DNA from: a virus
Direction: 5' to 3' (one strand)
IMG/VR virus record: IMGVR_UViG_3300045988_183972
DNA length: 64,000 nucleotides
Numbering within the stretch: position 1 is the first letter of the stretch; each line of letters opens with the position of its first letter. Position numbers and translations under genes: made by a program. This document shows positions 4,228 to 63,261 of the stretch, piece after piece. A model generated the notes under the pieces. It had not been told where the DNA came from and ran no database searches. It saw nothing but the letters and a program-made list of their open reading frames with translations.

Positions 4228-7200
4228 ATGAATAGTAAAGCAAATAATAGTAGTAATAATACAAAAAATCAGACACGGCAGCAAAAAACTACTAATCAGA
4301 ATAATACATCAAAATCATCAAATAACAGTAATAATAGTAAACCATCTGCATCACAGATACCAAATAATGAAACAAAGACTTCAACTTCGTCTACAACAAA
4401 TTATAATACAAGACAGGCTGTAAACACTATTGGCAGAGATATTTATAATTTAACAGATGGACGAATAAAATTAGGTTCATTTCAAGAAGGTGGAGGACGT
4501 GCTGGAGCTAGACAGGCTTTAGCTGAAACTGTATATAATTATACAACACAAGGTACAAGAGATAGAGAAAACAATTCCTTTTTTGATAATAAAATGAGGT
4601 TTAATAAAACAATAGCAGTTATGTCTGCTGTTGGTCATACAGCTAAAGAGAATGCTGTTATAAATACATATAATAATATTGATTGGAATAGTTCTAAAAT
4701 ACAGACCCAAATGACAAAAATGGGTATCCTTTCTAATAACAGCCAGCAATACCTTAATAGCTTTTTAAGTTCTAATACTGTAGTTGTTCCTAATAATGAA
4801 ATAAAGAATGTAAATGAAGACAAAATTACATTAGGTGATTTAAAATTAAATAATTCACAAAAGGCTAGTTTAATAAATACAGGTAAGTTTACTTTTGAAG
4901 GACAAGAATATCATATAAAAGATAAAGAGTTGTCAGAAGTAAGAAAAGCCTATAATGCGGCAAAAATAGAAATAAAAAATAATAATAATATTACTAAAGC
5001 TCTTACAGGTAAAGATAAAGAATTAGTAATGCAGCAGATAAAAAGCAAACAGACAGATTATCTTAAAAAAATTAGTGTTACAGGTGGATTTAATGGTAGT
5101 TTAGCTTCTACTAAGAAAGAAATTAAAGCTATAGATGATAAATTAGAGATATTAGAATGTAAATTAAAATCTGCTAATAATGCAACAGACTTACATAACT
5201 TTAAAAGCCAGATTGCGGAATTAAAAGATTATAAAGAGTCATTTATGTTATATAAAGAAACAGGAGCTATAACAGAAGACTTTGATAGAGGTGCTGGAAG
5301 AAAAAAATATGGCCGTTCTATAATTGCTCAAAATATCATTGGCAGTGATATGTATAGAGGAACTAAATTTATTCAAAATAGTAGTAAAGCTATTATTAGT
5401 GGTGCAAGATTAACAATTAAGACAACAACAAAGGCTAGTGCTGGATTGGTTAGTGCAGCAACATATATTCCAAGAAAAACAAGTCCAAATTCTAAAGCAG
5501 GAATAATAAGCAATAATATTAATAATAATGCACAAAGATATAAGAATAATATTAACGATAAGATAAGACATAAGACAAAAGAAGAAAAAAAAGCTCAGGC
5601 AAAAGAAAAAAAAGTTACTCATAAAGCAGAAGCTTTAGAAAAAAGAGAGAAAAGACTTGAAAGAACAGAAGCTAGAATTAATATTTTAAAAACAGGTAAA
5701 TTAACTGATGCAGAAGAAAAAAGACTTCAAAAATTAACAGAAAAGATAGATAGTAAAAAAATAGTATCTAATAAAGAATTAAACGAATATACTGAGTTAT
5801 TAAATAAAAAAGAAAAAGGTATTTTAACAAGAAAAGACCAGAAAGCTTTAACAAAACAGCAAAAAGTTTATAAAGCAAGAACAACGATATATAGTACACC
5901 AGATAAAGTAAAAGAAACAGTAAAAGATGGTTTAAAAAAATCTAAAGATGCTGTTGTAAAAAAGGTAAAAACAACAAAGGCATATAATAAATATACACAG
6001 TTTAAAAATGGCAAATTCTATGGAAATGCGATGAAAGTAAAAGGAAAGGTAAGAAATAGTAAGATTGGAAAAGCAGGTAAAGATATAAGATATACTATTT
6101 TACATCCTTTTAAAACTGTAAAAAAAATAAAAGATATGATTATAGATAAGCCATTAATGTTCATTAAAAAGTATTTATTAAAAATTCTTGGAACTATTAT
6201 AGCTTTATATCTTTTATTAATAGGTTTTGCTTTTGTTATGTTATTACCTATATTAGGTATAGGTTCATTTTTTGACTCATTACCATCATCAACAATTTCT
6301 AATGAATTAGCACAAATAAATTATGTTCAATTAATTGTAAATGATACAGCTAATAATTTAGGTAAAGAACTTACAAAAACAGCAATAAAAGATGCAGAAA
6401 CTCATTTTATATCGGAAAATGGAGCAGTTTCTTCTACAAAATATGATTGGAAGAAGAGTGTATCAGAAGGAAGTATAAAGCATATATGGGCTACAGAAGA
6501 TTTAAATAAAGATGTCTGGGATAGAACAGAACTTGCAGGAGTATCTGCTAATCTTTTACCTATTACAAGTATGATGCATTATAGATATAATCAATCAATT
6601 GATTTTGATAATTATTTAACTGCAAAAGCATATATATATTATATGTATGTAAGGTCACACGATACAGCCGCAGATGAAAATGGCAATATATATAGTTATG
6701 ATACATTAGCAGATTGTTCAAACGATAGCTTATATGTAACAAAACCTACATATGATATTGATAATAGTAAAGTAACAAGAGGCGTGGAAAGCTGTACTAA
6801 TGTATATGTACACGGATATTCTTCCGATTATAATAAAGCTATTAACAAAGCAAGGGCTGAATTAGGTGATTTCTTAAATATGGTACAAAGTGCTTTAGGT
6901 ATAGGACATCCAGATGGAACTAATGAAGACAATGGTGTATTTATTGATAAAAAACCTTATGATAGTAAAGGTGAATGTGATAATTATGAAGCATTTCAAG
7001 CTGGTGTAGGAAATAATTATACTAATTGTGGAAAAGAAGAACACGACCATAATAAAGAAGGTTGTAGCAAAGCTTGGTATAATGGTGATGATATATGTAC
7101 TATTGAGGAACATATACATAATGACGACTGTTATATTCATCATAAGACATTTTTAGGTTATGATAATTGTGAATTTGGTGATATACACGAAGAAACAGAT

Positions 7201-8673
7201 AGCTGTTATGAACTTCAATTTTTACCACAGAAAACAAGAGTTTATTTTAATGAATGTTCACATAGTATCTTAATAGATATTAATGATTACAAGGAAAATG
7301 ATGAATATTATTGTGAAGAATGTGAACAGTATAGAACAGAAAACCGACATTTTGATGGTTATTTTGAGTGGGTAAATGTTCAAGTATGTAATGGACATCA
7401 CGAACACAATGAAAATTGTGCTAAATATGATGAATATACTGAATTAATATGTACAAAAGAAGAGCATAGTCACGAAGCTAATGGAGAAACCTTAAATTGG
7501 ACTTGTGGTAAAGAAGGTCATATACATAATGCTTGGCATTCAGAAAATGACCCAGGCTGTTATAAGACAGCTTACATTTGTATGGGTCATTGTGGAGGAC
7601 ATATATCTCCAACAATAAATATATCACAGGATATGAGCTATACTACATTAAGCAAGTTAGATAATTTTAAAACACCTAGATTAATCACACAATCTGATTT
7701 TTCTCTTTGTCAGATAAAAGAGACATATAAAACTATAGATGCTTGGCAAAATCATTGGATAACAACATTTAATAATTGGTATTATTTTCCACTTAGAGGA
7801 CCAATACAATCTATAGAATGGAAAGCTAAAAAACTTACACAAGGCACTTTAACTTTTGCTAATTGGGCTGTAGGTAAAATAAATGGTTCAGAAATATCTT
7901 ATAAAGATGATGATAAATATAAGATGGAAGGCTATGATTTGTTTGAATTTGAAGGCTGGACAGAAGAACAGAATGGTGATTGGGTAATTAAACAAGAAGT
8001 ACTAGAAGATTTAAAAATATTGTATGGTGATTATTATGATGATAAATACGCAATGGGTATACAAAATTGGGATGCTTTTCAAGTAAGCTTTCCTTCAGCA
8101 GTTAATGAAAGTCTTAGCAGTACACAAATAGATGATACTTTAACTAAGATAAAGAAAGAAAATTCATTAACTCCAAAACAAGAAGCTATAATAAAAGAAG
8201 GATTAAATGCAGTTGGAAATTATTATTATTCTGAAAGCAAAAACAGTCCTAATGCACATCTTAATGCTGTGTATGGCAGAAAGATTGATGGACAGGATAC
8301 TTATAATGGACCAGCAGATGCATCAGGATTTTTAATAGGTATAATCAGAAGAGGAATAATTTCTGTTAATGGTTATAATGGCTTAATAGATGAAAATACA
8401 GATTTTTATGGACAAGGATTTGTTACTACAGATTATAAAGTAGGAGATATATTAAGTAGTGCTGATGGCAAATGTGCTATGTATTTAGGAGCATTGGAGA
8501 AAGGAATAGATAATTATTCTGTTTTAACAATGAAATCACATAGTAGTAGTGATAAACAAAATAAAACAGGTTTTTATGTTTTAGAGTGTTCTAAAGATTA
8601 TGGTGGAGTTGTTGTTAGAAAAGTAACAAAAAGTGAATTAGAAGCATCGTACACACATTGTTATAGAATTTAA
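4228..8673 (+). CDS. large (1481 aa) conjugation-associated protein: low-complexity/coiled-coil N-half, hydrophobic membrane hairpin, Cys/His-repeat region, C-terminal NlpC/P60-like (possibly catalytically degenerate) domain
   Basis: RBS AGGAGAAAG; hydrophobic segment KYLLKILGTIIALYLLLIGFAFVMLLPILGIGSFF (nt ~6170-6270); repeated C-x-K-E-E-H-x-H motifs (nt 6977-7610); C-terminal GPADASGFLIG...VGDILSSADGKCAMYLGA resembles the NlpC/P60 DCSGF...GDLxF..H.GIY.G core with Cys->Ala and His->Cys at the expected positions. Confidence 0.6.
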   Translation: MNSKANNSSNNTKNQTRQQKTTNQNNTSKSSNNSNNSKPSASQIPNNETKTSTSSTTNYNTRQAVNTIGRDIYNLTDGRIKLGSFQEGGGRAGARQALAETVYNYTTQGTRDRENNSFFDNKMRFNKTIAVMSAVGHTAKENAVINTYNNIDWNSSKIQTQMTKMGILSNNSQQYLNSFLSSNTVVVPNNEIKNVNEDKITLGDLKLNNSQKASLINTGKFTFEGQEYHIKDKELSEVRKAYNAAKIEIKNNNNITKALTGKDKELVMQQIKSKQTDYLKKISVTGGFNGSLASTKKEIKAIDDKLEILECKLKSANNATDLHNFKSQIAELKDYKESFMLYKETGAITEDFDRGAGRKKYGRSIIAQNIIGSDMYRGTKFIQNSSKAIISGARLTIKTTTKASAGLVSAATYIPRKTSPNSKAGIISNNINNNAQRYKNNINDKIRHKTKEEKKAQAKEKKVTHKAEALEKREKRLERTEARINILKTGKLTDAEEKRLQKLTEKIDSKKIVSNKELNEYTELLNKKEKGILTRKDQKALTKQQKVYKARTTIYSTPDKVKETVKDGLKKSKDAVVKKVKTTKAYNKYTQFKNGKFYGNAMKVKGKVRNSKIGKAGKDIRYTILHPFKTVKKIKDMIIDKPLMFIKKYLLKILGTIIALYLLLIGFAFVMLLPILGIGSFFDSLPSSTISNELAQINYVQLIVNDTANNLGKELTKTAIKDAETHFISENGAVSSTKYDWKKSVSEGSIKHIWATEDLNKDVWDRTELAGVSANLLPITSMMHYRYNQSIDFDNYLTAKAYIYYMYVRSHDTAADENGNIYSYDTLADCSNDSLYVTKPTYDIDNSKVTRGVESCTNVYVHGYSSDYNKAINKARAELGDFLNMVQSALGIGHPDGTNEDNGVFIDKKPYDSKGECDNYEAFQAGVGNNYTNCGKEEHDHNKEGCSKAWYNGDDICTIEEHIHNDDCYIHHKTFLGYDNCEFGDIHEETDSCYELQFLPQKTRVYFNECSHSILIDINDYKENDEYYCEECEQYRTENRHFDGYFEWVNVQVCNGHHEHNENCAKYDEYTELICTKEEHSHEANGETLNWTCGKEGHIHNAWHSENDPGCYKTAYICMGHCGGHISPTINISQDMSYTTLSKLDNFKTPRLITQSDFSLCQIKETYKTIDAWQNHWITTFNNWYYFPLRGPIQSIEWKAKKLTQGTLTFANWAVGKINGSEISYKDDDKYKMEGYDLFEFEGWTEEQNGDWVIKQEVLEDLKILYGDYYDDKYAMGIQNWDAFQVSFPSAVNESLSSTQIDDTLTKIKKENSLTPKQEAIIKEGLNAVGNYYYSESKNSPNAHLNAVYGRKIDGQDTYNGPADASGFLIGIIRRGIISVNGYNGLIDENTDFYGQGFVTTDYKVGDILSSADGKCAMYLGALEKGIDNYSVLTMKSHSSSDKQNKTGFYVLECSKDYGGVVVRKVTKSELEASYTHCYRI

Positions 8674-31219: not shown

Positions 31220-32788
31220 ATGAGTATTGGAATATTTATAGCTGTAGTAGTTGTAGCTTTATTATTAATGAGTTATATAAAAGCACCAACAGATAAGGCT
31301 TTTATTGTATCAGGCTTAAGGAAGAAGCCTAAGTATGTAATAGGAAGGTCAGCACTTCGTATTCCATTTTTACAGAGAGTAGATAAGCTTGATTTAAAAA
31401 TGATTAGTGTTGATGTAAAAACTAAAGAGTCAGTTCCTACAAATGAATATATTAATGTAAATATTGATTCAGCAGTTAAAATTAAGGTTGGTTTATCACC
31501 AGATATGTTAGAAAAGGCAGCTAATAACTTCTTAAATAAAAATGATTTATATATTAGAGACCAGGTTGTTGATGTACTTGAAGGTAATGTTCGTGAAATT
31601 ATTGGGCAGATGAAGCTTGAAGAAATTGTTCAGGATAGAAAGTTATTTGCTGAAAAGGTACAGGAAAACGCTGCTCCAGATATGGAAAAGATGGGTCTTG
31701 AAATAGTAAGTTTTAATGTACAGAATGTTACTGATGAAGGCAATGTTATTGAAAACTTAGGTATTGATAGAGTAGTAAGTATTTCTAAGTCAGCACAGAT
31801 TTCAAGAGCAGAAAGTGAAAGAGATATTGCTGTTGCTAAAGCTAATGCTGAAAAACAGGCTAATGATGCAAGAATTGAAGCAGAAACAGCTATTGCAGAA
31901 AGAAATAACGAACTTGAAATTAAAAAGCAGGAGTTAAAGAAGGCTGCTGATATTAGAAAAGCTGAAGCGGATGCCGCTTATGAAATTCAGGAACAGGAAC
32001 AACGAAAGACTATTGAAATCACAACTGCAAATGCTAATATAGCAAAGCAGGAAAAGGAGATTGAACTTAGAGAAAAGGAAATTGCTGTTAAGGAAAAGAC
32101 ACTTGATGCTGAAATCCGTAAACAGGCAGAAGCAGAAAAGTATGCCGCACAGCAGAAGGCAGATGCAGACCTTTATTTAAGACAGAAGGAAGCAGAAGCA
32201 AAGCAGTTTGAAATTGTTAAACAAGCTGAGGCTAAGAAATCACAGGCAGAAGCAGATAGATTTGCTAAGGAACAGGAAGCAGAAGCTATTAAGGCACAGG
32301 GATTAGCAGAAGCAGAGAGCATTAAGGCTAAAGGTGTTGCTGATGCTGAAAGTATTAAGGCAAAGGGTATGGCAGAAGCAGAAGCTATGGAAAAGAAGGC
32401 AACTGCCTATGAGAAGTATGGTAAGGCTGCTATGACTGATATGATTATTAAGATACTTCCAGAAATGGCAGGACAGATTGCTAAACCTCTTGAAGCCATT
32501 GATAAGGTTACTATTATTGATGGTTGTAATGGTGAAACAGGGGTAGGTTCATTTAGTGGTAATGTTCCTTCAGTACTTGCAAAGACTATTGAATCTGTTA
32601 AGGAAACAACAGGATTTGACCTTACAGAGGTTATGAAAGCTAATACATATGATGCTAAAACAACTAAGAATGTTAATTTTACAGGACTTCCTAATGAAGT
32701 TAATGTAGATGCTTCTAATGTTTCTGATATAGAAGATGTGTTTGAAAATACTGATTTTGATAAGGCTATGAAAAAGCTTTCTGATTAA
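31220..32788 (+). CDS. flotillin-like SPFH/band-7 protein (YqiK/FloA-type) with long coiled-coil
   Basis: N-terminal TM IGIFIAVVVVALLLM, SPFH core (IVSGLRKKPKYVIGRSALRIPFLQRVDKLDLKMISVDVKT...), extended AEAE/KAxG coiled-coil repeats typical of flotillins. Confidence 0.7.
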   Translation: MSIGIFIAVVVVALLLMSYIKAPTDKAFIVSGLRKKPKYVIGRSALRIPFLQRVDKLDLKMISVDVKTKESVPTNEYINVNIDSAVKIKVGLSPDMLEKAANNFLNKNDLYIRDQVVDVLEGNVREIIGQMKLEEIVQDRKLFAEKVQENAAPDMEKMGLEIVSFNVQNVTDEGNVIENLGIDRVVSISKSAQISRAESERDIAVAKANAEKQANDARIEAETAIAERNNELEIKKQELKKAADIRKAEADAAYEIQEQEQRKTIEITTANANIAKQEKEIELREKEIAVKEKTLDAEIRKQAEAEKYAAQQKADADLYLRQKEAEAKQFEIVKQAEAKKSQAEADRFAKEQEAEAIKAQGLAEAESIKAKGVADAESIKAKGMAEAEAMEKKATAYEKYGKAAMTDMIIKILPEMAGQIAKPLEAIDKVTIIDGCNGETGVGSFSGNVPSVLAKTIESVKETTGFDLTEVMKANTYDAKTTKNVNFTGLPNEVNVDASNVSDIEDVFENTDFDKAMKKLSD

Positions 32789-32959
32789 TATTAAATATAT
32801 AATTTTGATTATAGGCACTAATTAATATTTTAGTTAGTGTCTATTTTTATATTTATATAAAAGATTGAAAATTTTTTTTACTTTAGAAAAATTAAAATAT
32901 ACTATTTTTTATCTTTTTTACACTATTATATAAAACAATAAAAATTGAGGATTTATATT

Positions 32960-33847
32960 ATGAAAGATTGGATAAAAAATATTCATACCATTGATAAGAC
33001 TTGTGTAAATTCTGAAGGGGAATATTATAAATATACAGAATTTAACAGAAAGCCAATATCTTTATATATCGTTGTAACAAGAGATTGTAATGCCAGATGT
33101 CCTTTTTGTGAATATAGAGGAAAACTAAAAAAAATCAATATCAATAAATTTGAAGAAATTTTTATTGAGTTAAGTAAATATTATGATATTACAACAGTTC
33201 ATTTTACAGGTGGAGAACCTACCTTAGAATTAGATACAATTAATGTATTAAGCAAAGTCATAAAAGAAATTTCTCCTTTAACTAAAACAAGCGTTAACAC
33301 CAATGGAATATTCTTAAATGAATTGTCTAATATAGATACAATAGATAATATTGCTTTAAGCAGACACACTATTATAGATAAAGATAATTTTAATATTTTT
33401 AGAACCAATAATATCGCTACATATGAAAATATTTATAATAATAATTATAAGGAAAAAATTCATTTAAGCTGTAATCTTATAAAAGGATATATAGATAGTA
33501 GTGATAAAATATTAGAATATCTTGAAATGGCATCTAAATTAGATATTAATGATGTAGGTTTTGTTAGTCTTATGCATATAAATAATTATTGTGAAGAAAA
33601 TTTTGTAGAATTTAGTAATATAATTCCAAAGGAAAAGGATTTTTTTAATAAAACAAGAGATTATAAATGTATTAATAATAAAAATATAATTACTTGCAAG
33701 TGTGAAAATTATCTTTATAGAGCTAAAAATATGAATTTTATATCAATGTATCATAGATATGCTATTAAGAATAATGAAAAAGCAGATTTTCTTGTTTATG
33801 AAAACAATCATTTAAAACAAGGCTTTAATGGAAATATATTAATATAA
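32960..33847 (+). CDS. radical SAM enzyme (MoaA/viperin-like fold; specific function unknown)
   Basis: Start moved to ATG 32960 (GAGGA RBS); CNARCPFC (Cx3Cx2C) followed by HFTGGEPTLE SAM-binding motif and NTNGIFL. Confidence 0.55.
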   Translation: MKDWIKNIHTIDKTCVNSEGEYYKYTEFNRKPISLYIVVTRDCNARCPFCEYRGKLKKININKFEEIFIELSKYYDITTVHFTGGEPTLELDTINVLSKVIKEISPLTKTSVNTNGIFLNELSNIDTIDNIALSRHTIIDKDNFNIFRTNNIATYENIYNNNYKEKIHLSCNLIKGYIDSSDKILEYLEMASKLDINDVGFVSLMHINNYCEENFVEFSNIIPKEKDFFNKTRDYKCINNKNIITCKCENYLYRAKNMNFISMYHRYAIKNNEKADFLVYENNHLKQGFNGNILI

Positions 33848-35527: not shown

Positions 35528-36325
35528 ATGAAAGAAGTAACAAGTAGAGAGTTTGCTAATGGAAAGGTATATATGTTAATGACTGATGATAACTATCCAA
35601 TAGAAACAACAGATACTTTTTTACCTTTCTATACAAAGAATTGTATTAATGAACACACGAATGAACTTAAAGAAGATGTGTTAGGTTCAAGAGAAGAAAG
35701 ATGGATGATTGGTGTTAGTTGTATGAGTGGTTGTCCTGTAAGATGCCAGTTTTGTAATACTGGAAAATTAAAAAGATATAGAAATCTATCTGCAAAAGAG
35801 ATATATGAACAGGTTGTTTTTATATTAGACAAGCATTCAGAGATAAAAGAGATTGATAGTAAGGAATTTAAGATTAATTATACAAGAATGGGAGAACCTT
35901 TTCTTAATATTGAAGCTGTAAAAGAAGCTATCACTCTTATAGATAATGAGCCAAGATTAAAGAATGTCAAGATACATCATTATATAAGCACAATAGGACT
36001 TAAAGGTAGTGATTTTAGTTTTATAAAGGATAATATTACTTTACAGATTAGTTTACATAGTCTTAATGAAGATAGAAGACACAATCTTATTCCTATCAAG
36101 GGTCTTATGAGTATAGAAGAATTAGGACAGATAAGAACTAATAGTAATTTAAAAACAACTATTAATATGACGCTTGTAAACACAAAAGACTTTGATATTG
36201 ATATTATGAAAAAGTATTTTGACCCTAAGTATTTTTTTATTAAGCTTAGTCCTATTAATGAGAATGAGGTTAGTAAGGAACATAATATGGGTAAAGGTAT
36301 TATTCATAGAGAAAATTTAATATAA
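35528..36325 (+). CDS. RlmN/Cfr-family radical SAM (rRNA adenine C2/C8 methyltransferase-like) core, lacking the C-terminal segment
   Basis: GVSCMSGCPVRCQFCNTGKLKRYRNLSAKEIYEQVVFI aligns with RlmN [38 protein letters not shown]; also YTRMGEPFLNIEAV (GMGEPLLN), ISLHSLNEDRRHNLIPI (AISLHAPNDEIRDEIVPI), KYFFIKLSPINENE (KINLIPWNPFPG). Confidence 0.6.
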   Translation: MKEVTSREFANGKVYMLMTDDNYPIETTDTFLPFYTKNCINEHTNELKEDVLGSREERWMIGVSCMSGCPVRCQFCNTGKLKRYRNLSAKEIYEQVVFILDKHSEIKEIDSKEFKINYTRMGEPFLNIEAVKEAITLIDNEPRLKNVKIHHYISTIGLKGSDFSFIKDNITLQISLHSLNEDRRHNLIPIKGLMSIEELGQIRTNSNLKTTINMTLVNTKDFDIDIMKKYFDPKYFFIKLSPINENEVSKEHNMGKGIIHRENLI

Positions 36326-39019: not shown

Positions 39020-39312
39020 AAAAACTGAGAGATAAATTATGACTCTGAAAGGAATGTAAAATATGTTAATTAGTAAAACGGGTTGTACTTATTCAATAAC
39101 AAAAGAAGATTTGGAATGTGAATATAAAAAATGATTTTCAGATGATGCAAAAGCAGTATGCGGTCTTATATTGGAGATTTTACAAGACCAACGCTTTGAA
39201 ATTCTTAATAGCCCTAATGATGAGATTGCTTTACAAACAATTAATATAAGCATTAAGTCTGTTTAAGATAGGCTTGATAAATACAATAACAATAAATAAA
39301 GAGGTAATTAAT

Positions 39313-40020
39313 ATGGATAGATTGACAAAAGTAATGCAGTGTAATGATGGTAATAAGTTGTATGATTTTTCAAATGAAGTTGAAAAAAATATTAAAGACT
39401 TTTCATCAAGGCTTGAATTAATGTTTGAAAAGCTTGCTATGTACGAAGATTTAGAAGAACATGGCAAATTGCTTCAACTCCCTTGTAATATAGACGATAA
39501 TCTGTATTATTTTGATGAAAATAATCCTGATGGAAATGAGATTTTAAAATGTACTGTAATAGAGTTTAAACATAATAGAAGAGGTATTGAGTACATAATT
39601 GGAGATTATTTTTCTAAAACAGAAGGTATAACCTATAAAATAGGTATTAAGCCATCTGAAATAGGAGTTAATGCTTTCTACAATGAAGCTGAAGCTTATG
39701 CAAAATTAGATTTGGAAGTAACAATAGGACAGACCTTATATGTTATTCCTGTAGACGGTCAGTATATAAGAAAGGCTGAAGTAGTATCAATAAATCCACA
39801 CTATTATAATGATGCAGGATTTAAACTATCTGAGATGAGCAGTAAGGACTATAAGTATTATCTTGATGTTAAAGTAAGATACCTTGATGATATTCATACA
39901 GACTTACCTGTAACAGTAACATTCAGACTTAAAGACTTTAAAGATGAAGTTATTTTTACATCTGAAGAAGAAGCCAAAGAAAAACTTGCAAAATTAAAAG
40001 GTGAAATCAAGGAATTATGA
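39313..40020 (+). CDS. hypothetical protein
   Basis: Start moved to ATG 39313 (AAAGAGGTAATTAATATG); 235 aa. Confidence 0.4.
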   Translation: MDRLTKVMQCNDGNKLYDFSNEVEKNIKDFSSRLELMFEKLAMYEDLEEHGKLLQLPCNIDDNLYYFDENNPDGNEILKCTVIEFKHNRRGIEYIIGDYFSKTEGITYKIGIKPSEIGVNAFYNEAEAYAKLDLEVTIGQTLYVIPVDGQYIRKAEVVSINPHYYNDAGFKLSEMSSKDYKYYLDVKVRYLDDIHTDLPVTVTFRLKDFKDEVIFTSEEEAKEKLAKLKGEIKEL

Positions 40021-40251
40021 TAGTTCAATAGAAACTGATGAAATAGATTTAGATTAAATACAAATAGGGCTTATTTTTTTATAAATAGGCTCTTTTTTTA
40101 TATTTAATTTATTTTAAGGAAATTTTAAAATAATGATTAAAAATAAGAATTCTATATATCCATTATTATTATATATTTCAATTGTATTAAAAAAAGGAGT
40201 AAACTTTAATTATGTTAAAAAAAACGAAAATTTAAGAGAAAATAATAATAA

Positions 40252-40446
40252 TATGACACAAGAAATGATAGATATATTAAAAAATATATCAGATTTATGT
40301 TATAAGGCAAGTAATGAAGTCTATGAGGATGATGATTAAAAAAAAGGAACTGCGAAGATATTAAGTTTAGGTGATAATTTAAGTGAAGTTATTGATGATT
40401 ATATAGATAATTATGAGAAAGATTATGAAGATATAGAATTAGATTA
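40252..40446 (+). pseudogene. frameshifted paralogue of the 34214-34426 acidic protein (break in an A8 tract)
   Basis: MTQEMIDILKNISDLCYKASNEVYEDDD* then, in +1 frame, KKGTAKILSLGDNLSEVIDDYIDNYEKDYEDIELD; compare EEMIDLLKKVADLCCKASEEVYDDDKENGTANILNLCDKLQEAIDEYVLDY. Confidence 0.45.
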
Positions 40447-41099
40447 AGTAGTAGGAGATATAAATATATGTTTAATAGATATAAAAAAAATATCCTGCTG
40501 GGTATGTTGATTTATGTAAGTTTGTAAGATTTTATAATGACTGTCATTATAATGAAAACGGCATAACAAATAAAGATAAATACCATTATAAATATCGTAG
40601 TTTTTATTTACAAGGTGCTTCAAATGAAGATTGGACTGCTATTAGTCTTAGTCAAGAAAGAGCAAGGGATTAAATTTTAAAATTTATGTCTGAATATCCA
40701 GAAGCAAAAAAGCAGGCTACATAATAGACGAAAAAAAATAAAGAAAAAGATATTCGTTTAACGAAGGCATTTCATAAACTTAATATAAATTATAAAGAAG
40801 CTTATGAAATACAATGAATATTTAGATAATCAAATAATATCTGCACTAGAACGACAATATTCTTCTGATAATAAAAATAATATAAAAGATAATAATAAAT
40901 ATGATTATGATAGATAAATTTAGATAATAATATTTAAAGCAAATAGCAATAAAATAAAAACTTATAAAAGACATCTATAAAGAATATAGATGTTTTTTTG
41001 TATTTTTTTTAACTTTTTCCCATTATTATTATAAGAATTTTTACAGAAAAAGAGAATATTTGTATTTTTGTTTTAATATGGTATAATGGAGGAAAGTTT

Positions 41100-43245
41100 A
41101 TGTTTAGTAAAAGAGAGACAGAACTTAATAAAAGGTATATATATACAGAAAGAGGATATATGCACTTAAATGATGTACTTAGTAAAATAAATCAAAAAGG
41201 TCAGATATTTTCATTAAATCCTAATTTTACAACAATAAGATATATAGATAAAAACGAATATGATAATGATGTATATGAATATGTTGAACCAACATTTTTT
41301 GAGGAAAATGAAGATAATAGTAATGAAGACAATCCTAAATTTATAATTATTTCAGCTCCAGGAGCAACAGGTAAAACTGCATTAGCAAAACATATATGTC
41401 GTAAATATAATGGAATATATTGGGATTTGCCAGATACAAAAGTAGCTGAATATAGTTTTCAGGGAACAATTATGGAAGCAGTTGGCAATGATAAAATTAG
41501 TTCCTTTATTCAAAGCTTAATAGATGGTTCTAGTTTTCTGGTTATAGATGCATTTGATGAAGCCGAAACAGGTTCAGGAAGAACAGGTATTGAATTTTTT
41601 TTTAAGAGATTTTAATAATACTACTATAAATAATAAAGAAACTTGTGCTGTATTATTAGCAAGAACCGAAAGTGCATTATTTATAAAGAAATATTTTCAG
41701 GATAATAATATCTCTTATAATCATTATGAGGTAAGTTATTTTGAAGAAGATAATGCAAAAACATATATAAAAAATGGATTAGAAAAGAGAAATATTCCAA
41801 TTACTAATATTGTAAATGAATGTATAGAAGCTCAGTTTGAAGAAATTAAACGAATATTAATGAATAAAAATACTAATTCATTTTTAGGGTATGCTCCAGT
41901 ATTAAATGCTTTGTCAGCTTCATATGATGAAGAAAGAAATACTTTAAATTTACTTAAAAATACATATAATTCAGAAAGTAACTGTCATTTATTAAAAGCT
42001 ATTATGGACTCTTTATTAACAAGAGAACGTGACAAATTTATAAAATCTTTAAAAATAAAGCTATCTAATGAAATAAATAATTTTTCTGATGAAGTTTATG
42101 GTCCTAAAGAACAGATTTTAAGAATTTTTGGACAGGTTTTGTATAATGATAGTAATTTCTTCATAGAGTCTCATAAGGAAATACCTGCTCAATATTATGA
42201 AGAATATTTAGAAGCTGTTAATGCACAATTACCTCAACACCCATTCATAAAATCAAAAGACAAAAATGGTCAGATTAATTATGAATTTACAGGAATTGTT
42301 TTTAGTGATTACATAATATCTTATATGTTGTCATTAGATGATTATAAAGATTTTGCAGAAGAATATGTTTCAGAAAGAAAATATAATCCTTCTCCATTAT
42401 TGATAGAGTTTTATACTATTTTTTCTAAAAATACAATATCAGGTAAAAATATAGCTCTTATGTATAATTCATTAAAAGCACATACACAGACAGGAGATAA
42501 AACATATATTTATATAAATGGTGATAAAAATGATTGTTCTGTTGAATTTTTGCTTGAAAGAAAAAATGTAAAATACCTTTCTATTGAATTTAATATATAT
42601 GATATTCAAAAAGGAATTTATATAAATCAGTTATCAAATTGTTATATTGATATTGGGTCTGATGTTTATGTAGGAGCTGTTAATAGTGAGTCACGTATTT
42701 GCAATTCAATAATTAATTGTAATAGAATAATATGGGGTAGTGAGTATGTCTCAATTGAAGCTTACTCTCCAGGAGAGACTTCTTTAATCTGTGAAGAAAT
42801 GGGCTATATAACCCAGACTATTCCTAAATTTGAAATAAAAACAGATTATGATAAGAATTTTAAAGTGTATTGTCCATCATTAAAAGGATATTATAGATTA
42901 TTACCTTATCTTAATGAAGAAAACAATAATGATAATACTGATGATTTTATTGTTTTTGCAAATGTACTTAGAAGAATTTTTAGTTGCTTGCGTTCTCATA
43001 GTAAAGATGCTCCTGCAAGAAAAATGGATTTCATTGATAATCGTATTATTAATAATAATGAAGCAAAATTAAACATTTTAAAATTCCTTATAAATATAGG
43101 TTTATTATATACAGATGAACAGGATTGGCTTTATAAACTAAAAACAGATGAATTATCAACATATTCTATAAAATGGAATAATGTTCGTGATGGAGATTTT
43201 GCTTCTTTGGAGACATTATATAATAAGTATACTACTGATAAATAA
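41100..43245 (+). CDS. NACHT/STAND-like P-loop NTPase (~720 aa) interrupted by a frameshift in a T9 tract (41595-41603); candidate defence NTPase
   Basis: Walker A SAPGATGKTALAK, Walker B FLVIDAFDEAE (hhhhDxxDE, NACHT-like) in ORF 41100-41615; continuation ORF 41548-43245 in another frame joins across gaaTTTTTTTTTaag. Confidence 0.45.
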
Positions 43246-43507
43246 TGATAATATAAATAATACAATTGTGAGCTTATTTTTATAAAAAAATAGGCTCTTT
43301 TTTTTATATTTGCAACAATATTATTATATAAATTAATTATTTAAATATGTCTAATGGAAAGGAAGATATAATATGTTTAATAGTGTTCCTTTAACATTAT
43401 TTACAAATACATATAATAGAAAATCAAATAATAAGAGCTTTTTTAATAATGAAAAAAAGATTAACAAAAATATCAAAAATTTTATATTAGAAGGAGATAT
43501 TTATATG

Positions 43508-43723
43508 GATATAAAGACAGATGAAACAGTATTAATGTTTATTGCTGACAATAAATATAGTACTTGGATTTTACGAAAGAATGAAGAAACAATAAGTACT
43601 GGAGATATATCTGAATGCTTACAGACAATTTTTTCAAATTATGATGTAAAGGGAATTGATTTAGTCCCAACACAATTTAGTGAAAGTTGTGTATTGCAGT
43701 ATTTAATTATGGCTAAAATCTAA
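43508..43723 (+). CDS. hypothetical small protein
   Basis: Start chosen at ATG 43508 with GAAGGAG RBS (the longer 43373 start lacks an RBS). Confidence 0.3.
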   Translation, partial: DIKTDETVLMFIADNKYSTWILRKNEETISTGDISECLQTIFSNYDVKGIDLVPTQFSESCVLQYLIMAKI

Positions 43724-43819
43724 ATGGAGAATACTATGCATACTAACATATAAGCTTTTTATGTTTAAGTATGCCATATATAAACAGATAAAATAATTTT
43801 ATTAGAGAGATGAAAAATA

Positions 43820-44410
43820 ATGAATATCGAATATAATATTACTCTAAAATACACAAAAAACAATATTATAGATTTTTTGTGTAGAGAGGATGATAAAAAA
43901 TGGTTTTTACATAAGAATGATTTAAAAAATTATATAGAAAAATATATTTCAAAAATTCCTGAACCAATATTAAAAGCTTTTGATAAAGAAGGATGGAAAA
44001 TAATTTTAACAAATGAAAACTTAGAAGATAAGTTTGGTTATGATTTTGAAATATATGGAGTTACAGATAAAAATTACAAAACAATATATACTTATGCATA
44101 TCCTGTAGCAATAACTTACGGTTTGGGTCACGAAATAGGCCATTTTGTTGATATATTTTTAGGAAATATTTCAAGAACTAACCAATGGAAGAATATATGT
44201 AAACAACATAAAGAATTATCAGATATGCCAATATATTATTTTACATTAAATAAATGCGAATTTTATGATGAAGAATATTTTGCAGATAGCTTTTTATTAT
44301 TTCTTAATGACAAGACATTGCTTAAAAGATGTAATGAAAGTGCATATAATTTATTTGATAGGTTATTTAATAATATAGATATAATTATAGATATAATATC
44401 AAAAGGTTAA
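43820..44410 (+). CDS. zincin-like metallopeptidase (HEIGH motif; ATLF/M34- or PPEP-like)
   Basis: AYPVAITYGLGHEIGHFVD resembles HEFGHAVD of anthrax-lethal-factor-like/Pro-Pro endopeptidases; 196 aa. Confidence 0.4.
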   Translation: MNIEYNITLKYTKNNIIDFLCREDDKKWFLHKNDLKNYIEKYISKIPEPILKAFDKEGWKIILTNENLEDKFGYDFEIYGVTDKNYKTIYTYAYPVAITYGLGHEIGHFVDIFLGNISRTNQWKNICKQHKELSDMPIYYFTLNKCEFYDEEYFADSFLLFLNDKTLLKRCNESAYNLFDRLFNNIDIIIDIISKG

Positions 44411-44427
44411 TAAAAAAAGGAGAAAAT

Positions 44428-44958
44428 ATGAACTATAATATTATTATTACTTTAATGTTAATTATTCCTATACTAATGTTTTGTATTTATTATTGTTTTG
44501 CAGGAATAAAAGAAGAAAATATATGGGATAATCCATCAATAGATAGAGGATGTATATGTGCAATTATTGGTTTTATTAACTTTGTATGTTTTGTAGCATT
44601 TGAGATTAATAATAGTATTTTTACAACCATACTGATTATTATTGAAGTTCCTATTTTAATATGGACTGTATTTACAAAATGTTTTAATAAATTTGAAAAT
44701 AAAAAAAGGTTATATAACGAATTGTTATATATATATAATCAGGAAGATTTAACTGATTTTAAAAAGCATATGACACGAAAAGAACAAATAGAGTTTCTTA
44801 AAAGCATTAAGATTGAATGTTTTGATAGAACCAGAGAAGAAAATATAAATAGTGATGGAGAAAAAGTTGTTACAACTAAGGATATTTACCAATATATCCC
44901 ATTAATCGAAAATGAAGAAGATTTAGAATATTGGGAAGATATTTTAAGAAAGGAATAA
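44428..44958 (+). CDS. hypothetical membrane protein (176 aa)
   Basis: Three N-terminal hydrophobic helices; AAGGAGAAAATATG. Confidence 0.4.
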   Translation: MNYNIIITLMLIIPILMFCIYYCFAGIKEENIWDNPSIDRGCICAIIGFINFVCFVAFEINNSIFTTILIIIEVPILIWTVFTKCFNKFENKKRLYNELLYIYNQEDLTDFKKHMTRKEQIEFLKSIKIECFDRTREENINSDGEKVVTTKDIYQYIPLIENEEDLEYWEDILRKE

Positions 44959-45040
44959 CTTATGACTTTTAAAGAAGCAAGAAAACAAGCAAGAGAAATA
45001 GCTATCAAAATAGACCATTGGTGTTATATGTATAAAGATA

Positions 45041-45870: not shown

Positions 45871-46270
45871 AAATGACATTAAATTAGGTGATAAGGTATG
45901 GTTTTGTGAAAATATATGGTCCGCAAGGATTGTGTATGGAATAATTGAAGATATAAAAGATGAATATATTTTAGTACACGGAAAATCATACGATAATAAT
46001 AGCTTTACAGGCAAATTACACAAAATGTTTAATGATGTTTTTAAAACTAAAGAGCAATGCCTACAAGCTATAAAAACAAAAAATGACTTGATTATTGCTG
46101 CATACAAAGAGGAAATTACTGATATTAAGAGTCTTATAAATTTTCCTCTTGAACACAATGTAGGACAATGTGAGGAATATACCGATTATGAAGCTATTAG
46201 AGCTTATAAGGAAAGAGCTGCTGAATTAGGTTTTAATATTGATTTGGAAAATAGTATAGAAAGAGATTAA
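45842..46270 (+). CDS. hypothetical protein (start uncertain, possibly TTG 45863)
   Basis: ORF overlapping previous gene end; GGAGAGAGGTG RBS-like sequence precedes TTG at 45863. Confidence 0.35.
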   Translation: MERGVEDLNKNDIKLGDKVWFCENIWSARIVYGIIEDIKDEYILVHGKSYDNNSFTGKLHKMFNDVFKTKEQCLQAIKTKNDLIIAAYKEEITDIKSLINFPLEHNVGQCEEYTDYEAIRAYKERAAELGFNIDLENSIERD

Positions 46271-46315
46271 AATTTTTTAATTTTTATTATTTTAGAGAGA
46301 AAGGCTATTTATTTT

Positions 46316-46678
46316 ATGGAAAAAGGTAATAGAAATTTATTAATTATTTTAATAATTGTAATTATAAGTAGCATAATAGGGTTTACTTATTTTGTTTATA
46401 GTTCTAAAAAAATAAGTAAAGAAAATGCTATAAAATATGAAGAAGAAAAAGATAAGCCTGAATTTAATGCTCTTACTAAAAAGAATATTTCTATTTATAA
46501 ATTATCAGATACAGAAAATACAGAATATTTTGTAAAATTTTATGATACATATTCAGGTTCTAGTAATTATTATCCAATAGGTACAAATTTATCTGGAAAT
46601 ATTATTTTATCAAGAAATTTAAAAGATAACGCTCAATTAATGATTATTAATGATAAAGTACTTATGCTTGAAAATTAA
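46316..46678 (+). CDS. N-terminally anchored small protein (120 aa)
   Basis: TM LLIILIIVIISSIIGFTYFVY; IS element inserted directly after its stop codon. Confidence 0.4.
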   Translation: MEKGNRNLLIILIIVIISSIIGFTYFVYSSKKISKENAIKYEEEKDKPEFNALTKKNISIYKLSDTENTEYFVKFYDTYSGSSNYYPIGTNLSGNIILSRNLKDNAQLMIINDKVLMLEN

Positions 46679-48045
46679 TTTACCGCAATCTCCGAAGCTT
46701 TAGCTTCGGGGTTAAGGTAACAAGATATTAGCCGACCTAAGTCAGCGGAAAGGAGAAATTGATATGATTAAAACCAATAGAGCTATTGTTTATAGATTGT
46801 ATCCAAATAAAAAGCAAGCAGAATTTTTTCAAAAGACTTTTGGATGTGTAAGATTTGTATATAATCAGATGCTTTCCGTTCAAGAAGAACGATATAAAAA
46901 TAATAAAAGTCATCTTAGTAAATTTGATATGAACTTTTATTGTAATCATAATCTTAAAACTGAATATACTTGGCTTAAAGAAATAGATAAGTTCGCTTTA
47001 ACAAATGCAATATATCACTTGGAAGATGGCTACCAAAGAATGTTTAAACATCTTGGAAAACATCCAAAGTATAAGAATAAGCATAAATCAAAGAAATCAT
47101 ATACTACAAATTTTACAAATAACAATATCGAAGTTGGAGAGAATTATATCAAGCTTCCAAAAGTCGGTAAAGTTAAAGCTAAAATCAGTCTTGATACAAG
47201 ATATTTACAAATCAAGTCCGCTACAATTACTCAAAACAGGGATGAAACCTATCAGGTATCTATTCTTTTTGAGATTATAGAAGAAGAACCAGTACAAGTC
47301 ATTCCTACTAAAAATAATACAACTGGTTTAGATTATAAATCAGATGGGTTGTATGTAAGTGATACAGGAGTAGTTGCCAATATGCCACATTATTACAAGC
47401 AGTCTGCGAATAGCCTTGCTAAACAGCAAAGAAAACTTCGTAATAAAGTAATTGGCAGTAAAAATTATTATAAACAGCAGAAAAAGGTCGCTAAAATTCA
47501 TAAACACATAGTAAATCAGAGAAAAGATTATTTACATAAACAATCTACTGCGATAGCCAAACAGTATGCTTATGTATGTGTAGAGAGTCTTAATATGAGA
47601 GCTATATCAAATAAGGGTTTTGGTAATGGTAAAGCTACATTGGATAATGGTTATGGAATGTTTTTAGATATGTTAGCTTATAAATTACAGGAACGAGGTG
47701 GAAAGCTTGTTAAAGTAGATAAATGGTTTCCATCAAGTCAGATATGTAATTGCTGTAGATTCCAAAATCCAATATTGAAAGACCTAACTATTAGGCATTG
47801 GAATTGTCCTAATTGTGGAACAACTAATATAGATAGGGATATAAATGCAGCTAAAAATATAAAACAAGAAGGATTAAGATTGTTAGGTATAGCTTAGTAA
47901 TCTAAAACATGGTAGGTATGGACGATACCGAACCTAAAAGTCTGTAGACATTGTGGGAAAACTACCAAAAGGTGTGATAATAACTGTAATGGATGAAGCA
48001 GGAATCCCTTGAGCTTTAGCTTTGGGGAGCGTCAAAGTAGAAGGA
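46679..48045 (+). mobile_element. IS200/IS605-family insertion sequence carrying only tnpB (IS1341-like), with related subterminal hairpins at both ends
   Basis: Left end tccgaagctttagcttcgggg hairpin (46689-46708), right end cttgagctttagctttgggg (48010-48029); TnpB ORF between; GC-richer than flanks. Confidence 0.65.
46764..47897 (+). CDS. tnpB: TnpB (OrfB) RNA-guided nuclease of IS200/IS605 family
   Basis: N-terminal AIVYRLYPNKKQAEFFQKTFGCVRFVYNQ, RuvC-like motifs, C-terminal zinc finger CNCCRFQNP...WNCPNCGTTNIDRDINAAKNI. Confidence 0.8.
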   Translation: MIKTNRAIVYRLYPNKKQAEFFQKTFGCVRFVYNQMLSVQEERYKNNKSHLSKFDMNFYCNHNLKTEYTWLKEIDKFALTNAIYHLEDGYQRMFKHLGKHPKYKNKHKSKKSYTTNFTNNNIEVGENYIKLPKVGKVKAKISLDTRYLQIKSATITQNRDETYQVSILFEIIEEEPVQVIPTKNNTTGLDYKSDGLYVSDTGVVANMPHYYKQSANSLAKQQRKLRNKVIGSKNYYKQQKKVAKIHKHIVNQRKDYLHKQSTAIAKQYAYVCVESLNMRAISNKGFGNGKATLDNGYGMFLDMLAYKLQERGGKLVKVDKWFPSSQICNCCRFQNPILKDLTIRHWNCPNCGTTNIDRDINAAKNIKQEGLRLLGIA

Positions 48046-49311: not shown

Positions 49312-50118
49312 ATGTATACTATGATGATAGCTTTGACATATAGATGTAATATGGGATGTACTCATTGTATTTCAGATTGTAAACAAAATGGAATAGATAT
49401 GAGTAAAGACACTTTTATTGATAGTCTTGATTTTATAAATAAACATAAAATAAAAGCAATATTATTTTCTGGCGGTGAACCATTTGAACATCCAGATATT
49501 ATATCTTTGCTTGGTATTATAGAAGAAAAATTAGATAAGAATATCCCTATTACCTTTGCTACAAATGGAAGAGTTTTAGCAGATAATATTGAAATTTATG
49601 AAAAAGTATCTGAATTAGTTAAGAAGAATAAGAAAAGAATAATCATACAAGTTACAGATGATGATAGATTTTACCCTACTAAACTTAATGAAAAGCAAAG
49701 ATATAGACTGGAAAAAATAGGTGCTGTTATAGAAGGTGTTCCTAGCTATGTTTCTGATAGAAATAGGTGTTTATATCCACAAGGTAGAGCTTTAGATAAT
49801 TTTGATGAATCGTTTTATTATACTATTGCTCCTAAATGTGTAAATGTACGATTATTAGTAAGACAGAATATAAATAAAATATCAAATATATGTGATACAT
49901 TGCTTATGAGAGGAAAAATGTGTACTCCAGTAATTGCTCCTAATGGTATGTTAAAAATAGGAGAGTCGGCTTTGTGTCCTGAAGTAGCTTCAATTTATGA
50001 TAATGAAAAGGATATTATAAACAAAATATCTCATTTTAATTGTAATAAATGTACATATGCCCTTGAACAATTAAAGAAAAATAATCTGCCTGCTTACAAT
50101 CTATTAATAAATGAGTAA
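49312..50118 (+). CDS. radical SAM enzyme (function unknown; viperin/maturase-like core)
   Basis: CNMGCTHC (Cx3Cx2C) near N-terminus, ILFSGGEPFEHPD SAM motif, C-terminal extra Cys (CPEVASIY...CNKC). Confidence 0.55.
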   Translation: MYTMMIALTYRCNMGCTHCISDCKQNGIDMSKDTFIDSLDFINKHKIKAILFSGGEPFEHPDIISLLGIIEEKLDKNIPITFATNGRVLADNIEIYEKVSELVKKNKKRIIIQVTDDDRFYPTKLNEKQRYRLEKIGAVIEGVPSYVSDRNRCLYPQGRALDNFDESFYYTIAPKCVNVRLLVRQNINKISNICDTLLMRGKMCTPVIAPNGMLKIGESALCPEVASIYDNEKDIINKISHFNCNKCTYALEQLKKNNLPAYNLLINE

Positions 50119-61785: not shown

Positions 61786-62676
61786 ATGGATAATACAGCT
61801 TTAGCAAAGAGAATGAAAAAATATTATGAAGAAGTACCTAAAACAAGATTAATAAGAAGAATGCCAGTATGTATAAGATTAGATGGAAAAGCATTTCATA
61901 CGTTTTTAAAGGGATTTAAAAAGCCATTTGATGATATATTTATAAAAACAATGCAGGATACTATGAGATACTTATGTCAGAATATACAGGGATGTGTATT
62001 AGGTTATTCACAATCAGATGAAATCAGTTTAATACTTATAGATTATCAAAAACTCACAACAAGTGCCTGGTTTGATTATAATGTTCAAAAGATATGTAGT
62101 GTGTCATCAAGTATGGCTACATTAACCTTTAATAAGCTATTAAAAAACAATGTTGATAAATATAAGGTTGAAAAATGGGATGGAGTTTCAAAGTATAAAA
62201 ATGGAGAAGATGAATATATTGAGACATTATTAAGAGCAGTTGATAAAGGTGCAATGTTTGATAGTAGATGTTTTAATATACCAAAGGAAGAGGTTGCTAA
62301 TTTAATATTCTGGAGACAATTTGATGCAAGCAATAATTCAGTACAAATGGTAGGACAGGCTTATTTTACGCAAGAAGAACTTAATAACAAGAATACTAAT
62401 CAGATACAGGATATGTTAATGACACAGAAAGGTATTAACTGGAATGACTTACCAACTTATCAGAAGAGAGGAAGTTGTTGTGTAAAACATAATTTTTGGA
62501 TTGATAAGAATGATGGTGAAGAATTTAGTAAAGAATATTCAGAAGCATTAGACAGAACTGCAATAGATGAAAATGCTATTAAGAGAACAAAGTGGATTAT
62601 AGATGAAAATATTCCTATTTTTAAAGGTGAAAATAGAAAATATATAAATGATTTAATATTATATAATGAAGAGTAA
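61786..62676 (+). CDS. Thg1-like protein (tRNA-His guanylyltransferase family 3'-5' nucleotidyltransferase, TLP)
   Basis: RMPVCIRLDGKAFHTF and GYSQSDEISLIL match Thg1 catalytic motifs VVRLDGRNFHRF / GQSDEYSF (two metal-binding Asp); AAAGAGGATAAAAAGCTATG. Confidence 0.55.
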   Translation: MDNTALAKRMKKYYEEVPKTRLIRRMPVCIRLDGKAFHTFLKGFKKPFDDIFIKTMQDTMRYLCQNIQGCVLGYSQSDEISLILIDYQKLTTSAWFDYNVQKICSVSSSMATLTFNKLLKNNVDKYKVEKWDGVSKYKNGEDEYIETLLRAVDKGAMFDSRCFNIPKEEVANLIFWRQFDASNNSVQMVGQAYFTQEELNNKNTNQIQDMLMTQKGINWNDLPTYQKRGSCCVKHNFWIDKNDGEEFSKEYSEALDRTAIDENAIKRTKWIIDENIPIFKGENRKYINDLILYNEE

Positions 62677-62691
62677 GAAAGGAATGATAGC

Positions 62692-63261
62692 ATGAAAAAA
62701 ATTCCTACTTTATTTAAAAGAGTTTATAAAGATAATAAAATTATAGATATACTTCCTGAAGTTACTGAAGGTATGGAATGGGGTTTAAAAGGAGAAGGAA
62801 TAGCCACGGTAAAAATAGATGGTTCTTGTAGTGCTATCATTAATGGTGTATTTTATAAGAGATACGATGCTAAAAATGGAAAACCTATTCCTAAGGGAGC
62901 TATTAAATGTCAGGAAGCAGCAGACCCGATTACAGGACATTTGCCTTGCTGGATTAGAGTAGATAAAGACAATCCTAGTGATAAATGGTTTTATGTTGCA
63001 TATCTAAATACATTAAAGGATAAAGAAGACTTAGTAAATGGAACATATGAGGCAATAGGCCCTCATTTTCAAGGAAATCCTTATAATCTATCTGAAGATA
63101 TATTACAAAAACACGGAAAATTTGTAATAGAAGTTGAAAGAAGTTTTGAAGGAATAAAGAAGTATTTATCAGAACATTATATTGAAGGTATTGTATTTTG
63201 GAAAGATGGAGAGCCGAAATGTAAGATAAAAAGGTCAGATTTTGGATTTGAGTGGAAGTAA
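62692..63261 (+). CDS. minimal covalent nucleotidyltransferase (RNA/DNA ligase-like) domain protein
   Basis: Motif I TVKIDGS (KxDG), motif IV EGIVFW, motif V KCKIKR in canonical order; 189 aa; GAAAGGAATGATAGCATG. Confidence 0.45.
   Translation: MKKIPTLFKRVYKDNKIIDILPEVTEGMEWGLKGEGIATVKIDGSCSAIINGVFYKRYDAKNGKPIPKGAIKCQEAADPITGHLPCWIRVDKDNPSDKWFYVAYLNTLKDKEDLVNGTYEAIGPHFQGNPYNLSEDILQKHGKFVIEVERSFEGIKKYLSEHYIEGIVFWKDGEPKCKIKRSDFGFEWK

Follow-up and report, generated by a model that had tools for sequence, protein, structure and literature searches.

The split NTPase gene and its product

The window analysed here is a 64,000-nt stretch of DNA, in which a disrupted gene occupies positions 41100-43245 on the plus strand. 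It is read as two overlapping open reading frames. ORF1 (41100-41615, plus strand) encodes 171 aa ending in GIEFFFKRF before the stop codon and matches the database protein P0135 exactly, and ORF2 (41548-43245) lies in the +1 frame relative to ORF1. The two frames are joined across a run of nine T (41595-41603, plus strand), which contains one T more than the ancestral and majority state, T8, where the tract forms the codons TTT TTT TTA of F166, F167 and L168. Residues 169-714 are encoded downstream, in the +1 frame, at 41604-43245 (plus strand). In the T9 allele translation stops 4 codons past the insertion, after 171 residues. The first-pass annotation had placed the nine-T run, the second frame starting at 41548, and the Walker A and NACHT-type Walker B motifs within ORF1, and each of these was found exactly where it had been described.

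Removal of a single T (T9 to T8) fused ORF1 and ORF2 into a frame of 714 aa, whose product is identical to the database protein P0001 (100% identity over 100% of its length), a NACHT-like STAND NTPase. This length agrees with the roughly 720 aa that had been expected for the fused protein, and the homologues are single ORFs of 690-725 aa. When the tract length was edited in silico, T8 was in frame, T7 and T9 were out of frame, T10 led to an immediate stop and T11 restored the frame too. A clean T10, which had been considered as a possible intact state, is thereby dismissed in favour of T8. An intact copy of the NTPase gene is present in locus L001, in the same neighbourhood.

Upstream of the gene, a consensus scan detected a promoter-like site, TTTACA and TATTTT separated by 17 nt (41040-41068, plus strand), and direct reading of the sequence revealed a second promoter-like element resembling TGnTATAAT (41079-41087, plus strand), both being consensus matches only. 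A Shine-Dalgarno motif, GGAGG (41088-41092, plus strand), was read from the sequence 7 nt ahead of the ATG at 41100, and a hairpin resembling an intrinsic terminator, with a T8 tail (43270-43305, plus strand), lies directly past the stop codon; three terminator-like sites were found against 0.2 expected. Judged by these signals, the NTPase locus is apparently one self-contained gene unit, with its own ribosome-binding site, promoter-like sites and terminator-like hairpin.

The Walker A motif, S85-APGATGK92-T93 (41352-41378, plus strand), has G88, G91 and K92 invariant among 42 homologues. The Walker B motif, FLVID150-AF-D153-E154-AE (41535-41567, plus strand), follows the NACHT-type pattern hhhhD-x-x-DE, with D150 and D153 invariant and E154 present in at least 90% of members. 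ORF1 thus comprises the N-terminal region and both Walker motifs, and lacks the candidate sensor-1 residue R188 and everything beyond it. The part past residue 169 contains the rest of the nucleotide-binding domain (NBD), including R188, and the helical and winged-helix parts of the NACHT-like module. According to the predicted structure, these are followed by a beta-helix (about 42499-42870, plus strand) and a C-terminal winged helix (about 42943-43242, plus strand). The tripeptide Q379-H380-P381 is invariant and sits directly before a beta-hairpin and after a helix ending at residue 379; in the model, H380 would fit the winged-helix histidine that contacts the bound nucleotide in NACHT modules. 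The 171-aa product cannot function as an NTPase, because the reading frame is lost after Walker B, ahead of the next core strand.

The assignment of the protein to the NACHT/STAND class, proposed from the motifs, was upheld by motifs and fold and not by a curated Pfam match. The predicted fold matched solved NACHT modules (NBD, helical and winged-helix parts) better than other P-loop ATPases, and NACHT modules outranked replication and transposition ATPases, with alignments of 280-360 residues that included the helical and winged-helix parts. Pfam NACHT (PF05729) scored 15.1 bits against a gathering threshold of 26.7, NPHP3_N 19.7 against 24.8 and nSTAND3 16.2 against 27.2, all below threshold; at E<0.01, NPHP3_N matched 16 of 42 family members and NACHT 7 of 42. 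A search of NCBIfam yielded nothing relevant for the NTPase, and PDB sequences, searched by profile, matched only at an insignificant level, to clamp-loader P-loops (E 0.2). The N-terminus, of about 65 residues, had no domain match, and no effector domain was recognised. On the basis of the structural model, the protein is best described as a NACHT-like STAND NTPase in which a short N-terminus precedes the P-loop NBD with its helical and winged-helix parts, and a beta-helix leads to the C-terminal winged helix. Clustered at 50% identity, the family has about 1,200 representatives.

The carrying element

The window encodes a VirB4-like conjugation ATPase of the CD1110 family, a T2SSE ATPase, PIF1-type helicases and TnpB, as well as a Thg1-like enzyme, a flotillin and several radical-SAM proteins, and nearly all of its genes have the same orientation. 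Contigs of 209-668 kb from human-gut metagenomes carry this sequence too (L001, L015, L017 and L019 among the loci). Searches with P0001 and with the VirB4-like backbone gene found no related loci in GTDB species representatives or IMG/VR, a megablast of positions 40000-45000 against INPHARED phages gave no match, and tRNA and Rfam scans of the window returned nothing. The best PLSDB match of VirB4 had 36% amino-acid identity. The 'Hodor' gut megaplasmids were considered as relatives and rejected, their GC content being 44-47% against 25% here. The host replicon reads as a very large conjugative element of a Firmicutes host, of 25% GC and strongly strand-biased composition and with contigs up to 668 kb, for which the searched collections contain no description.

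In related giant elements the NTPase gene is 66-76% identical (L020, 6001-8136; L031, 5001-7130). It lies between a giant NlpC-like protein and an M20 peptidase in L020, and directly upstream of Thg1 in L031. These different backbone positions indicate that it moves as a single-gene cassette.

Several other features of the element were recorded. Three radical-SAM genes (32945-33847, 35528-36325 and 49312-50118), the Thg1-like gene (61786-62676) and a flotillin/Band_7 gene (31220-32788) form a cargo that is unusual for a conjugative element. The Thg1-like gene, a homologue of tRNA-His guanylyltransferase, is followed by a gene for a 189-aa protein (62692-63261), whose counterpart in L031 has a faint match to RLIG1. 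A 1,481-aa protein encoded at 4228-8673 has no Pfam match at E<=0.001; its position and C-terminus had earlier led us to take it for a conjugation protein of the NlpC/P60 type. A 1,529-aa counterpart precedes the NTPase in L020. Two genes downstream of the NTPase, positions 43820-44410 encode a 196-aa protein with an HExxH motif, which matches Pfam ATLF, the metalloprotease domain of the anthrax lethal factor type, at E 8e-10 and is conserved in all strains examined. Moreover, a TnpB unit (IS200/IS605 OrfB-type) of about 1.36 kb (46674-48033) and a 414-bp block (45875-46288) are both present in the window and L019 and absent from L001 and L018; they are an insertion polymorphism between strains of the element.

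Alleles of the T tract

The tract alleles were scored on consensus contigs. The 90%-identity cluster of P0001 has 53 member sequences, and the listed 714-aa members were found on at least 145 contigs, some of them of 400-668 kb. A scan of a metagenome collection with a pattern spanning the tract, any tract length being allowed, returned T8 in five of five contigs. The intact tract, T8, prevails, and roughly 5% of contigs have the minority allele T9; like all allele frequencies here, this is a rough figure, because the same sample may have been assembled by more than one source.

The 171-aa entry P0135 is encoded with T9 in seven other human-gut assemblies, from different projects and assemblers (SRR17319335, SRR34067076, ERZ501984, ERZ913258, GCA_900525535.1, SRR25457423 and SRR11646690). 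Most T9 alleles have no other lesion; in L002 a second stop codon follows downstream. The gene is truncated in other ways as well. Both T7, in L009 and L011, and a T>A change in L010 that turns TTA into a TAA stop at the same site lead to a 167-aa product ending in GIEFF. A 94-aa product ending in GATGKLH, in L013 and L014, results from an A4>A3 deletion in the A4 run at 41373-41376, within the Walker A codons.

Homopolymer indels being the commonest assembly error, and one T9 contig being very thinly covered (coverage 2.6), the extra T might have been a miscall of assembly or sequencing in a sample that truly carries T8. We consider this very unlikely, and the sequencing error that the first-pass annotation had listed among its explanations is disfavoured, since the identical T9 allele recurs in those seven independent assemblies. 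The exact haplotype is common to four loci (the window and three assemblies), which points to inheritance, and the secondary downstream stop in L002 is as expected of an old, real pseudogene. Furthermore, other T8 and A8 runs on the same contigs are not miscalled: a T8 run at 41003-41010 was stable in length in 13 of 13 contigs, and another at 43298-43305 in 10 of 11. The stability of these nearby runs of the same length argues against a generic homopolymer assembly error. T9 is a genuine natural allele and not a one-off error.

To follow the history of the tract, haplotypes were defined by SNPs within the gene at 41621, 41782, 41903, 42102, 42633 and 42660. Among loci picked by allele, four haplotypes occur with both T9 and T8: that of the window and L004-L006 (T9) is shared with L018 (T8), that of L003 (T9) with L001 (T8), that of L002 (T9) with L019 (T8) and that of L007 (T9) with L015 (T8). 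T7 was seen on two SNP backgrounds. This distribution indicates that slippage at the tract is recurrent. Unless gene conversion is responsible, it would mean at least four independent T8>T9 and at least two T8>T7 events; some of the seemingly independent T9 events could be imitated by recombination or gene conversion. One complete haplotype is common to the window, L004, L005 and L006, so the T9 lineage is also inherited and circulating. Upstream of the gene, linked SNPs cluster densely in the intergenic region 40705-40982, along with a 12-bp indel at about 40842. From these polymorphisms two or three upstream haplotypes can be told apart, which are out of phase with those within the gene; this suggests recombination between strains at the 5' boundary of the gene.

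Programmed recoding, in which the T9 allele would still yield the full-length protein by +1 ribosomal frameshifting or RNA-polymerase slippage, had also been raised. In many bacteria RNA polymerase tends to slip on runs of 9 A or T, a tendency that may be suppressed in AT-rich genomes (Baranov et al. 2005, PMC1088944). Loss of one U from the transcript would restore the frame and some leaky rescue is plausible, so that a little full-length protein might possibly arise from T9 by RNA-polymerase slippage. As a programmed mechanism, however, recoding is highly improbable and went unsupported. The majority allele, every homologue and the approximately 1,200 family representatives are single in-frame ORFs; neither a two-frame layout nor a slippery site is conserved among homologues. 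The slippery run is specific to this lineage, and the 0-frame reads UUU UUU UUU AAG, where the A site offers neither a stop codon nor a rare one that could promote a +1 shift.

We then asked whether the tract resembles an evolved switch. The window has a GC content of 24.9% (A 42%, T 33%), and its long runs comprise 13 T8, 13 A8, 2 A9 and 1 T9. The run at 41595-41603 is the sole run of at least nine within a long ORF in the window, and the sole one joining two long ORFs; T8 is an ordinary length for such a base composition. The encoded motif, G-I-E-F-F-L-R-D, is conserved, with L168 invariant and F167 present in at least 90% of members. At the DNA level, the tract is broken by one TTC in all six of the other homologue lineages checked, including relatives at 23-31% GC: as TTC TTT TTA in L020, L031, L032 and L029, as TTT TTC TTG in L033 and as TTT TTC TTA in L030. 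In the window itself, TTC is used for just 10% of Phe residues, and TTT TTT encodes 13 of the 17 Phe-Phe pairs. Maintenance of the tract by selection, which would appear as conservation or as a length greater than composition predicts, was not found.

The slipped-strand on/off switch suggested by the first-pass annotation must be weighed against these data. Under adaptive phase variation, the tract would serve, in populations of the element, as a reversible switch of a costly gene for NLR-like defence or abortive infection, which is on at T8 and off at T7 or T9. The locus does have a frame-shifting repeat within an ORF and recurrent length changes among near-identical strains, as in homopolymer contingency genes, where a coding mononucleotide run varies between close strains and toggles the frame in recurrent independent events. 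T9 stands on at least four haplotypes and T7 on at least two, in a population differing by a handful of SNPs, and neighbouring tracts of the same length are stable. Moreover, the T9 alleles free of other lesions could revert, the gene resembles an accessory conflict gene, and a working switch would also yield recurrent T7, T8 and T9 consensus alleles. In contrast to contingency genes, the run is short for an A/T tract of that kind, specific to its lineage and interrupted in all homologues examined, and most copies are in frame. The gene is also destroyed by mutations that are not reversible (the TAA stop, the Walker A frameshift and the secondary stop in L002), and neighbouring genes are broken in a similar, strain-specific manner. 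The recurrence of slippage was thus borne out, while a purposeful switch appears unlikely, and the evidence favours an accidental mutational hotspot over a purpose-built on/off switch.

Other lesions of the gene were found in L029, with an in-frame stop near residue 126, and in L030, with a frameshift near residue 40. Homologues of 540-560 aa (P0091 and P0108) had been considered as instances of the same break point elsewhere; this was rejected, since their DNA shows the stop at about residue 126 and the frameshift at about residue 40, and their short lengths arose from the gene caller restarting at a TTG past the FFL motif. The loss of the NTPase gene by these other routes as well fits a dispensable or costly accessory gene.

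The small genes beside the NTPase carry strain-specific indels, stops and deletions, the whole accessory region being in decay. A gene for a 176-aa protein (44428-44958) has three different indels in three strains (L002, L009 and L011), the gene at 43373-43723 is broken in four strains, and that at 39274-40020 is partly deleted in L002 and L010.

Taken together, we favour, at a probability of about 60%, the reading that the window carries a natural loss-of-function allele of an accessory NLR-like STAND sensor gene, at an accidental, lineage-specific slippery run. The NTPase gene would be accessory cargo on the very large, 25% GC conjugative element of the human gut. The T8 run would have been created when a synonymous TTC>TTT change left the conserved Phe-Phe-Leu just past Walker B encoded as TTT TTT TTA in this lineage, and replication slippage at the run would repeatedly add or drop a T, giving T9 or T7. 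The T9 product would keep the P-loop and lose the rest of the ATPase and all C-terminal domains, presumably with complete loss of function, and the null alleles may persist through the gene being dispensable or costly. The frameshift itself is mostly deflationary, a case of recurrent loss of an accessory gene, and is to be annotated as a frameshifted pseudogene allele of the 714-aa gene. It nevertheless offers a clean natural case of one gene independently inactivated many times in a near-clonal population of mobile elements, the pattern expected of costly immune genes.

Relatives and putative role of the NTPase family

What is new is the family's uncharacterised architecture rather than the frameshift. 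This sizeable STAND family, covered by no Pfam or PADLOC model, combines an unusual sensor-like C-terminus (beta-helix and winged helix) with the lack of an effector. PADLOC returned no family for the NTPase and no Avs matches, and among family members only scattered weak matches to IetA, HamA and PDC-M49A.

We infer that the NTPase may be an NLR-like sensor in conflict or defence, which would oligomerise once a ligand binds. Among the closest known systems are the bacterial NACHT, NLR-related proteins (bNACHT; Kibby et al., bioRxiv 10.1101/2022.07.19.500537) and the eukaryotic NLRs NLRP3 and NOD2. Unlike these, the NTPase described here has Pfam NACHT and NPHP3_N scores below the gathering thresholds, only about 65 residues in place of an N-terminal effector, and a C-terminus made of a beta-helix and a winged helix instead of LRR, TPR or WD40 repeats. 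The antiviral STAND proteins (Avs1-Avs21; PMC13581612; Avs4 structure 8dgf) are also among the closest; they possess N-terminal effectors required for cell death and large TPR-like sensors, neither of which is found in the NTPase. The tripartite layout of effector, NTPase and repeat sensor is accordingly absent from it, with its effector-less N-terminus and its beta-helix and winged helix at the C-terminus. The recent STAND survey (Nature 2026, PMC13581612) makes no mention of a beta-helix sensor or of an effector-less architecture.

The only hint of an effector in the family comes from P0176, a distant representative of 1059 aa, which has a HipA-like toxin kinase domain (Pfam HipA_C, E 6e-6; PADLOC PDC-M03A, E 2e-14) at the N-terminus of the NTPase/beta-helix/winged-helix module. 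Fusions of this type are rare.

A non-immune role is possible, although we think it the less probable one: the protein could be a STAND/AAA+-type ATPase serving the biology of the mobile element, in maintenance, control of transfer or DNA binding through its C-terminal winged helix, and the frameshift would then be the ordinary decay of a redundant cargo gene. The better ranking of NACHT modules over replication and transposition ATPases, across 280-360 residues, speaks against such a role, as do the effector-type domain fused to P0176 and the toxin-antitoxin or GmrSD/Panacea genes that adjoin some homologues.

More speculatively, the whole family of NACHT-like NTPases of about 700 aa with a beta-helix and a winged helix might consist of effector-less, single-gene immune sensors carried by mobile elements of gut Firmicutes. 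In the giant element described here, T8 would then be in effect a stochastic switch by which sub-populations lose and regain an autoimmunity-prone sensor; we regard this as a long shot. With a good AF2 model at hand, the family is a reasonable candidate for defence-system screens.

The genes that accompany the homologues vary. GmrSD and SocA/Panacea genes neighbour the homologue in L026, a PIN/PhD toxin-antitoxin pair that in L022, an HTH gene and a Mutator transposase that in L033 and a phage tape-measure gene that in L032. For others, the neighbours are hypothetical genes in giant elements, or phage tail genes are close by.
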